Positions 30,846 to 32,404 of a stretch of DNA of 64,000 nt are shown piece by piece; within the stretch, counting starts at the first letter, position 1; each line of letters begins with the position of its first letter. Under the pieces are notes generated by a model. It was not told the DNA's origin. It saw only the letters and a list, made by a program, of their open reading frames with translations, and did no database searches. This stretch comes from Felis catus (lineage: Eukaryota): NCBI RefSeq assembly GCF_018350175.1, contig NC_058368.1:73658001-73722000 (forward strand), read 5' to 3'. The position numbers and the translations under genes were made by a program.

Positions 30846-31902
30846 TAGAAAGAGCATGCGTTAGAGCCTGCAGGGAACCCAACCTAAATGGTTGCAGTGT
30901 CAGCCAATCATCCTAACATCCCTGATATTTTTTCCTCATTTGTAAAATGGGGTTAATAAACCAAAGTGTTGATGTGGGAACTTAGATCAGAATCTCTGGC
31001 AGAATATTTAGCAGTTCTTATTATAGGAGGTCCTCAAATGTTACCTTCTTTCCTTCCTTCCATTTCCTTCCATGGACACACTAAATGCAAACAATATTGA
31101 TGATTCTGATGTCAGCCTTCTGAGGCTTAGGGCTTGGAACTTGACCTTGATTGTCATTGTGTAAATATGAGCTGGAAAGGAAAACCAGAATCACAGGAAG
31201 GAGATGCAGGTCTAATTTATAAGCAATTGCCTTGCTCAGCCTAATTGCTACTCTTCAAAAAGAGAACAATGAACATGCTTCCCTTGTTTTTAGAAAAAAT
31301 TCAACACTATTCAAATCTTGATATAGAACAGTTGGTTCTAAATGTGACCTTTTAATCATAGCAAGAGTGTAAGTCGGTTCTTTACGTCAGGCAGTCTTTG
31401 CTGTGGGACCACAACAGCTAAAACATGTTTATATTCTGTACATTCTTAAGGATGCAATGTACTAATTCTAATTTGCTAGTCTACTGGAGTGCTCTAATGC
31501 TCATTAATTAAAAAAAAAACCTTCAAGCGTATTTTCTTTCAATTGTGTCCACCTCTGAGCTGAAAATATTTGCTAATTCTTTGTCCTTTATCCACTCTGT
31601 AAGGCGAGCTGCTTCCTTGGATGATTACATATTCTTCTCCTCCATGATCGCTACAGCCTTTCCCTTCTGACCATCAATCACTGTGTGATGAAATTTGTTG
31701 ATTGGGTTTATTTTGCAAATGATGCAGTTTGCAAAGTCCCAGGTTCATAGTCATTTTCCATGGCTGTCTAGACGAGACTAAAACTCTCAATCAATCAACA
31801 CTTCTAGATTAATTTTTCCCTCTCTGTGAAATAAAAAAAAAGTGAATTAAGAGTTAAATTAGGCTTCCTGGCTTATGTATTTATTAATCAATCAACCTTC
31901 CA

Positions 31903-32113
31903 CATAATACTAAATTAATGTTTATGGTACAATATCTGCATACCGATTTCTGCGGCTGCCAGTTTGAAAATAGTGCTGTGCTGAAGCAAGATTCTATCTG
32001 CTGTGAACATTTTTATAATGAGCTGCAGCCCTGGAAACATTGAAACCCATTTAAAAAGTGACCTGCATAATCTCTCAGAGAAAATTAAATGGGTGAAAGA
32101 TCATGAATAAGAA
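31903..32113 (+). pseudogene. POGLUT2-like: Disabled exon homologous to POGLUT2/KDELC1 (GT90/CAP10 protein O-glucosyltransferase)
   Basis: Frame-corrected translation [66 protein letters not shown] versus recalled human [70 protein letters not shown]. Three stops and three 1-nt indels. Followed by GTAAAT at 32114. Confidence 0.9.
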
Positions 32114-32404
32114 GTAAATATATATTTAAATGGCATCAAGATGGCGTCTTTTCTTTGCTGTGCAGTTCTTGGTTTTATTAATGTAAAACGGCAGCTGAGT
32201 GACTTGGGGACTGGTTGGAAGGATTCTACAACTTACAGATACTCTTCCTTTAAATATATGGATAGCCCAAATCTCCTCCATCCACATCACATGTCTTATT
32301 ATTACAAGTTTTAAATGTTCTTAGTGCCCACAGAATGGTGCTAAATAGCCTTTTACAGTTAACATGTTGATTTTGTCTAACAATGGGGTATAGAGTGGAG
32401 GTTA

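Follow-up and report, generated by a model that had tools for sequence, protein, structure and literature searches.

The window analysed here is a stretch of 64,000 nucleotides (nt) from Felis catus (NC_058368.1, hereafter C1, positions 73658001-73722000), and it holds, on the forward strand at window positions 31901-32113 (C1:73689901-73690113), the relic of a single protein-coding exon, located by local alignment, blastn and tblastn. This exon corresponds to exon 7 of POGLUT2 (KDELC1), a member of the small POGLUT1/2/3 family of enzymes, which glucosylate EGF repeats of Notch and fibrillins. When a POGLUT2 query was compared with the whole assembly (2.43 Gb in 71 contigs, the basis of all genome-wide searches), the working gene was recovered as nine exon matches on the reverse strand (C1:73510597-73523075), together with the relic (expectation value, E, 2.7e-5), POGLUT3 (C21:7.01-7.04 Mb) and one POGLUT1-like exon (C18:65.41 Mb). 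From the relic to the working gene the distance is about 167 kb measured to the first exon and about 177 kb measured to exon 7, relic and gene being on opposite strands. It is intergenic, in gene-poor DNA between a METTL21E-like gene and SLC10A2, approximately 67 kb beyond the METTL21E-like exon. A preliminary description of this DNA had proposed a separate, lost POGLUT2 paralog; the homology holds, but the copy is a local duplicate, found some 167 kb from the working gene on the other strand, and not a distant paralog locus. Taken together, the observations very probably describe an old, unprocessed relic of POGLUT2 exon 7 that has no coding function today. Gene relics of this sort are commonplace, although the present one may at some time have belonged to a working extra copy.

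Read with frame correction, positions 31901-32113 spell most of a 70-residue segment of POGLUT2 across three frames, and an open reading frame (ORF) of 51 amino acids (aa) at 31888-32040 on the forward strand includes an uninterrupted core of 21 residues. With five POGLUT2 proteins as tblastn queries (horse, swift, grouse, skink and one mammal-like sequence), the locus was found as three linked pieces in three frames (31908-31946, 31969-32055, and 32051 or 32054 to 32113) with summed E-values of 3.3e-13 to 7.0e-12, all other matches in the 64 kb having E of at least 0.84. At the DNA level, comparison of the nine POGLUT2 exons of the same genome with the window by blastn returned exon 7 alone (E 2.6e-28, 69.6% identity over 217 nt with 3 gaps), the next match having E 0.04. 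A profile built from 101 POGLUT2 proteins and compared with 12,502 six-frame pieces of a 239-kb block detected just the three pieces of the relic (independent E-values, i-E, of 9.2e-8, 0.018 and 5.1). The Pfam family PF05686 matched the 51-aa ORF with E 0.016 and 14.6 bits, under the 24-bit cut-off and at profile positions 238-261 of 396 only, and the case for homology therefore rests on the linked alignments and not on Pfam. Residue identity to exon 7 of the same genome's gene is 45/70 (64%), where about 60% to the human sequence had been estimated by eye. POGLUT2 is a closer match to the relic than POGLUT3 is, with nucleotide identities of 69.6% and 64.3% to the respective exons and differences at codon positions 1 and 2 amounting to 27/140 and 36/130, and in a tree rooted on POGLUT3 the relic is placed on the POGLUT2 side. 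The preliminary description had claimed both a GT90/CAP10 homology to POGLUT2 and this closer affinity; the former is confirmed by the linked tblastn pieces, the exon-7 blastn match and the profile search, and the latter by the counts just given. Judged from its sequence, the relic is certainly a copy of POGLUT2 exon 7.

The working exon 7 consists of 210 nt in phase 0/0, encodes H362-E431 and is bounded by ttttcag ahead of CAC and by gtaagg following GAG. The relic measures 213 nt, which replaces an earlier figure of 211 nt, while the three 1-nt indels and three stops first described are all present, each indel being a single-base insertion. When the relic and its parent were aligned locally, allowing 60 nt of flanking sequence at either end, the alignment ran from the first exon base through the last exon base and the adjoining GTAA. 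All lesions are given here on the forward strand. As placed by gaps in the alignment, the first frameshift is due to an inserted T at 31905, a placement uncertain by about one base, and the second to an inserted G at 31958, across which three ORFs from other samples (P0020-P0022) read alike. The third is due to one extra base in the run TTTAAAAA at 32050-32054, where both alignment placements give the same difference counts. In the frame-corrected translation, stop codons replace codon 4 (Gln365; TAA at 31911-31913), codon 47 (Tyr408; TGA at 32041-32043) and codon 69 (Glu430; TAA at 32108-32110), the second of which ends the 51-aa ORF as well as P0020-P0022.

The former 3' splice-site position is occupied by ccttcca (31894-31900, +), from which the AG has gone and where the working gene has ttttcag. 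At the opposite end GTAAAT (32114-32119, +) is a remnant of the 5' splice site of intron 7, and the alignment to the parent runs through its GTAA. Both ends, with ccttcca before and GAA followed by GTAAAT after, are as previously described. Set against POGLUT2 exon junctions, they fit exactly those of exon 7 in this genome's gene and those visible in read-through ORFs of birds, reptiles and mammals. In the bird and reptile ORFs, sfq is followed at the junction by YKYQ, and HDEE by V and then N, K or S; in the mammalian ORFs, lq is followed by HKYQ, and HDEE by VRSVS, with the same exon junctions throughout. Single-exon read-through ORFs deposited in public protein sets can in this way show exon junctions without an annotated genome.

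The CGA at 31944-31946 (+), codon 15 in the frame-corrected reading, still specifies Arg at the position of Arg376. For human POGLUT2, a 2026 structure paper (PMC13084666) gives R376 as a contact of the UDP (uridine diphosphate) diphosphate, D238 as the catalytic base, and R310, R316 and R376 as diphosphate-binding. Of these four residues, just R376 falls within exon 7. No exon carrying D238, R310 or R316 occurs in the 259 kb surrounding the relic (C1:73490001-73510000 and 73523001-73762000, including the window), and no extra copy was found genome-wide with the whole protein, exon 2 or exon 6 as queries. An intact GT90 reading frame is not present, the relic covering aa 362-431 only and carrying three stops and three frameshifts. 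With the working exon (C1:73513.3 kb, -) it shares the same aa 362-431, the same ends and the Arg376 codon, at the 69.6% nucleotide identity and 45/70 residues already mentioned. It differs in its three insertions and three stops, in the missing acceptor AG and neighbouring exons, in a third-position G+C of 0.34 against 0.63, and in its strand.

The homology is bounded by exon 7 and accompanied by a splice-site remnant, as in unprocessed pseudogenes, and exons 6 and 8 do not abut the relic. Around it, neither a downstream poly(A) nor a convincing flanking direct repeat was found. The one candidate for a target-site duplication was an 11-mer, AATCAATCAAC, which occurs twice upstream, 97 nt apart, and which was taken as chance or microsatellite-like. 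Taking into account the exon-exact ends, the lack of exons 6 and 8 and the lack of a poly(A) or target-site duplication, the relic is therefore an unprocessed copy; on this sequence evidence its DNA-level origin is almost certain, as the preliminary description had argued in preferring a gene copy to a retrocopy. Flanks of 200 nt showed no significant similarity to the parent introns (z-scores of 0.86 upstream, against intron 6, and -0.66), the intron match being restricted to the first 4-6 bases, and a 500-nt upstream comparison gave a z-score of 4.9 that is largely due to a TC-run and an A-run.

The relic is old. It differs from the parent exon at 63 of 210 aligned bases, 42 of the differences being transitions, and 9/10 CpGs of the parent exon are changed in it. 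Simulated unconstrained decay at 0.2-0.25 substitutions per site (K) leaves 43-47 identical residues, 23-28 differences at codon positions 1 and 2 and about 2 stops, where 45, 27 and 3 are observed. Neutral substitution proceeds at approximately 2e-9 per site per year; with this rate and the simulated K, the unconstrained decay of the relic would have lasted on the order of 100 million years. Three 39-aa ORFs from other samples (P0020-P0022) are 87-95% identical to the relic and have in common the second frameshift and the TGA stop, which indicates that those lesions predate the split of these close sources. A search of 1.84 billion representatives gave 11 matches, none of them relic-like: eight are ordinary POGLUT2 exon-7 ORFs, and the remaining three, at 39-43% to the out-of-frame start of the relic, were taken as spurious.

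Several features suggest that the copy was once translated. Differences between relic and parent are distributed over the three codon positions as 15/12/36 of 70 each (Fisher p 2.9e-6), with a nonsynonymous proportion (pN) of 0.165 and a synonymous proportion (pS) of 0.81; for comparison, pS between POGLUT2 and POGLUT3 in the same exon is 0.87. Had the copy never been selected, third positions of the parent would need to have changed 3.4 times as fast as the free sites of the relic (bootstrap 95% interval 1.6-7.1), a ratio that fell to 1.0 or below in 0.08% and to 1.5 or below in 1.7% of 5000 resamples. The relic has a third-position G+C of 0.34, the parent exon one of 0.63. The relic also carries N23, F50, D53, I61 and V64, residues that are common in birds, reptiles and amphibians but uncommon in the sampled mammals. 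Over 106 gap-free segments (15 longer proteins that did not align end to end were dropped), 4-5 such matches were counted where random decay of the parent exon predicts 1.1-1.9 (P 0.0015-0.03, under four settings picked after seeing the data). In a tree of the 70 aa, the relic stands outside the mammal clade with support of 96/95. When read through into the intron, it continues as V-N-I-Y-L, resembling the V-N-I-H-L of the bird exon-7 ORFs P0008, P0010 and P0012, while four of five mammalian ORFs continue as V-R-S-V-S; this is a weak hint of a past coding phase, the bird side being known from protein letters alone. The codon-position pattern and the non-mammal residue states thus suggest past coding selection, neither of them being decisive.

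In the history that we favour, POGLUT2 was long ago duplicated locally at the DNA level, introns included, the copy lying on the other strand from the working gene. This duplicate would have remained under protein-coding selection for long, its synonymous sites drifting to A+T while residues were kept. It would then have been disabled and, freed of constraint, would have gathered three stops, three single-base insertions and substitutions at approximately 0.2-0.25 per site. Its remaining exons would have been deleted, leaving exon 7 as the last visible piece, now inert. This account as a whole, with the once-working duplicate gene included, appears to us evenly poised between right and wrong. 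A more specific version, which is tentative and leans towards doubtful, is that stem mammals possessed a third POGLUT2-type glucosyltransferase gene beside POGLUT2-BIVM-ERCC5-METTL21E, that it coexisted under selection for tens to more than 100 million years and died at about the placental radiation, and that the exon is its last trace. If such a stem-mammal gene existed, an intact copy might persist in some non-placental or early-branching lineage.

A considerable body of observations weighs against a working duplicate, beginning with the isolation of the exon. Over the 259 kb, tblastn and blastn found no credible POGLUT2 piece besides the relic and the edge of the working gene's exon 1; one further exon 1 match by blastn (C1:73578593-73578647) has E 0.016 only. 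In the profile search of the 239-kb block, everything beyond the three pieces of the relic was at noise level, and when exon 6 and exon 2 were searched against the whole genome, POGLUT2 and POGLUT3 alone came up. A genome-wide DNA search with window positions 31300-32700 returned, besides the region itself, two matches: the parent exon, at 75% over 146 nt, and a short stretch at 73% that is unrelated. Some weaker candidates were set aside as noise. One of them, at 51078-51147, might have been a relic of exon 8 (blastn E 1.7, tblastn E 7.7, profile i-E 44); it is purine-rich and loses its similarity after QEF. The others are weak matches at 28972-29148 and 30120-30227. Queries from fused genes with a second Pfam family (P0036 and P0093), which we take to be TEX30-like, gave nothing new in the region.

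Remains of other exons are missing both from the 259 kb and from the genome-wide results for exon 2, exon 6 and the whole protein, despite good expected power. A bird POGLUT2 served as stand-in for simulations (random back-translation, substitutions at 0.2 or 0.3 per site, an indel every 70 nt and mammal queries only). Of 25 trials, 16-25 recovered exons 2, 3, 5 and 6, and all 25 recovered one or more exons besides exon 7, rates which linked tblastn statistics may flatter. The other exons are really absent, and given this power they were either deleted or never copied. If the gene was lost, a single surviving exon requires several deletions, which by our own estimate from mammalian rates of sequence loss is roughly a one-in-ten outcome.

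The evidence for coding has its own counterweights. The best residue identities of the relic, 45/70, are a seven-way tie among placentals, birds and frogs. Approximately unbiased (AU) tests do not reject a relic placed with mammals (p 0.136) or with placentals (p 0.189), and the mammal-type states H1 and K62 are also present in it. The third-position G+C of the parent exon is 0.60-0.63 against 0.50 for the whole gene, and the exon is CpG-rich, so that part of the third-position excess could be fast synonymous change in the parent. That signal comes from 70 codons and from a two-way comparison of relic and parent, in which a change may belong to either lineage; a metagenome scan for outgroup POGLUT2 DNA gave one locus, which covers aa 81-225 only and does not reach exon 7. 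The finding was moreover picked for its protein-likeness, which biases positions 1 and 2 towards similarity. Among the 120 relatives listed of 1042, no extra intact POGLUT2-type tetrapod gene was found, and in a full-length tree three mammal-like POGLUT2 sequences behave as orthologs and not as a second gene. The long selection before death that had originally been proposed is suggested by the 15/12/36 pattern and by the 4-5 non-mammal states, but the AU results and the absence of every other exon leave it short of proof.

Some unusual sequences were encountered among the POGLUT2 relatives. The hedgehog "POGLUT2-like" protein P0042 and P0032 are fast-evolving and grouped inside placentals, with long branches of 0.23 and 0.14, which could mean either that evolution was accelerated or that the order has a duplicate. 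P0017 runs from POGLUT2 exon 7 straight into exon 8, with apparently intron-like sequence at both outer ends, and in P0018 exons 6-9 are joined; in both, MDDD replaces MGDD, and either incomplete splicing of transcripts or a retrocopy in another mammal could account for them.

Apart from a once-working duplicate, the history that accounts best for the locus is one in which exon 7 and some intron were copied once, inserted about 167 kb away in reverse and, having never coded, decayed neutrally. A lone exon then needs no deletions, the copy is single with no other piece anywhere, and the AU tests permit an origin within mammals or placentals. Under a generous model of such decay (K of about 0.27, with third positions taken as 1.3 times more mutable for their G+C and CpG richness), about 35 and 30 differences are expected at positions 1+2 and at position 3, against 27 and 36 observed; a hand calculation puts p at about 0.03, and the choice of the finding for its protein-likeness softens this value further. 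The third-position excess, with its ratio of 3.4 (95% 1.6-7.1), speaks against a fragment that never coded, as do the 4-5 non-mammal residue states and the third-position G+C of 0.34, where decay at the rates of positions 1 and 2 would by our calculation have left about 0.49. The flanks are anchored at the exon and lack intron similarity (z 0.86 and -0.66), which fits a deeper split better than a neutral distance of about 0.2. With these points weighed, neutral decay of a fragment that never coded is quite possible, though on balance doubtful.

It is improbable that the relic owes its preservation to a present use, be it within a non-coding RNA, as an enhancer or another regulatory element, or through a short peptide encoded by the ORF of 39-51 aa. 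Three other samples have this ORF open, at 87-95% identity, and the GT donor remnant persists; set against this, the observed decay equals simulated unconstrained change, the common ORF is partly out of the POGLUT2 frame, 2-5 of its 39 residues differ among close relatives, and an Rfam scan matched no family. Reuse as a regulatory element had earlier been proposed on the ground that one exon is better preserved than the others, which finds no support here, as the rest of the gene is absent and not worse preserved. Least credible is a processed retrocopy fragment of POGLUT2 messenger RNA cut by chance at both exon 7 junctions, for which nothing speaks beyond the general commonness of such fragments, and against which stand two ends that are exon junctions, GTAA(AT) after the last exon base, no adjoining exon 6 or 8, no downstream poly(A) and flanking repeats at the level of chance 11-mers.

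The relic can be compared with several known systems. POGLUT3 (KDELC2) and POGLUT1 belong to the same GT90 domain family, the relic being nearer POGLUT2. It resembles duplicated (unprocessed) pseudogene fragments found near their parents in being a disabled, DNA-level copy on the same chromosome with exon-exact homology and a splice remnant, but it is unusually old for a recognisable piece and shows a coding-like third-position excess, unexpected of a fragment that never coded. Mammalian genomes contain remnants of vitellogenin, which are relic exons of long-lost genes and, like the present relic, are isolated, heavily decayed exons in intergenic DNA that record a vanished gene. In that case the lost gene is known in other lineages and the relics are syntenic, whereas the supposed extra POGLUT2 gene has no known living copy. 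A literature search found no mention of a POGLUT2/KDELC1 pseudogene, and a term search of a 2026 review of POGLUT2 and POGLUT3 met neither pseudogenes nor duplication. A plain pseudogene fragment matters little, and the locus should be annotated as a POGLUT2 exon-7 relic lest gene finders and conservation scans misread it. If a working gene did once exist, it would add a lost member to the POGLUT1/2/3 family and give a dated case of the time for which one conserved exon stays recognisable once its gene has died.

The genes around the locus were located by a Pfam family search of the genome. An XPG_N exon (ERCC5-like) lies at C1:73575246 (+), Methyltransf_16 exons at C1:73622501-73622815 (+; METTL21E-like) and C1:73399128-73399445 (-; METTL21C-like), and SBF exons (SLC10A2-like) at C1:73766152-73773713 (-). 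The names ERCC5, METTL21C, METTL21E and SLC10A2 are our presumption from these family matches and from the gene order of human 13q33, no annotation having been used. The METTL21C-like and METTL21E-like exons flank the POGLUT2-ERCC5 cluster on opposite strands, as the POGLUT2/relic pair does. They diverged anciently, with 65/125 residues identical and 85/125 third positions different (saturated), and third-position G+C is 0.47 in the right-hand copy against 0.65 in the other, the same direction as in the relic and POGLUT2. A single duplication behind both pairs was considered and rejected, since gene order and strands are not mirrored and the METTL21 pair is saturated.

The window has a vertebrate-like composition (G+C 39.5%, CpG observed/expected 0.20, no N), and its remainder consists of repeats only, with one reverse-transcriptase fragment above the Pfam cut-off among the 150 longest ORFs. 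This RVT_1 fragment is found at 14714-14977 (-; E 1.7e-9). A 303-aa open frame without Pfam match at 42913-43821 (-) is presumably the C-terminal part of LINE-1 ORF2. Two copies of a 240-nt unit, which we take to be a carnivore short interspersed element (SINE), stand head-to-tail at 35673-36126 with 82% matches, and a repeat resembling it, near 33290-33542, has further matches in introns of POGLUT2 and POGLUT3. The TG/TA-rich tandem array at 23220-23753 is long and imperfect, with periods of 20, 82 and 158 and up to 93% matches, and it leaves all six frames open across about 0.8 kb.

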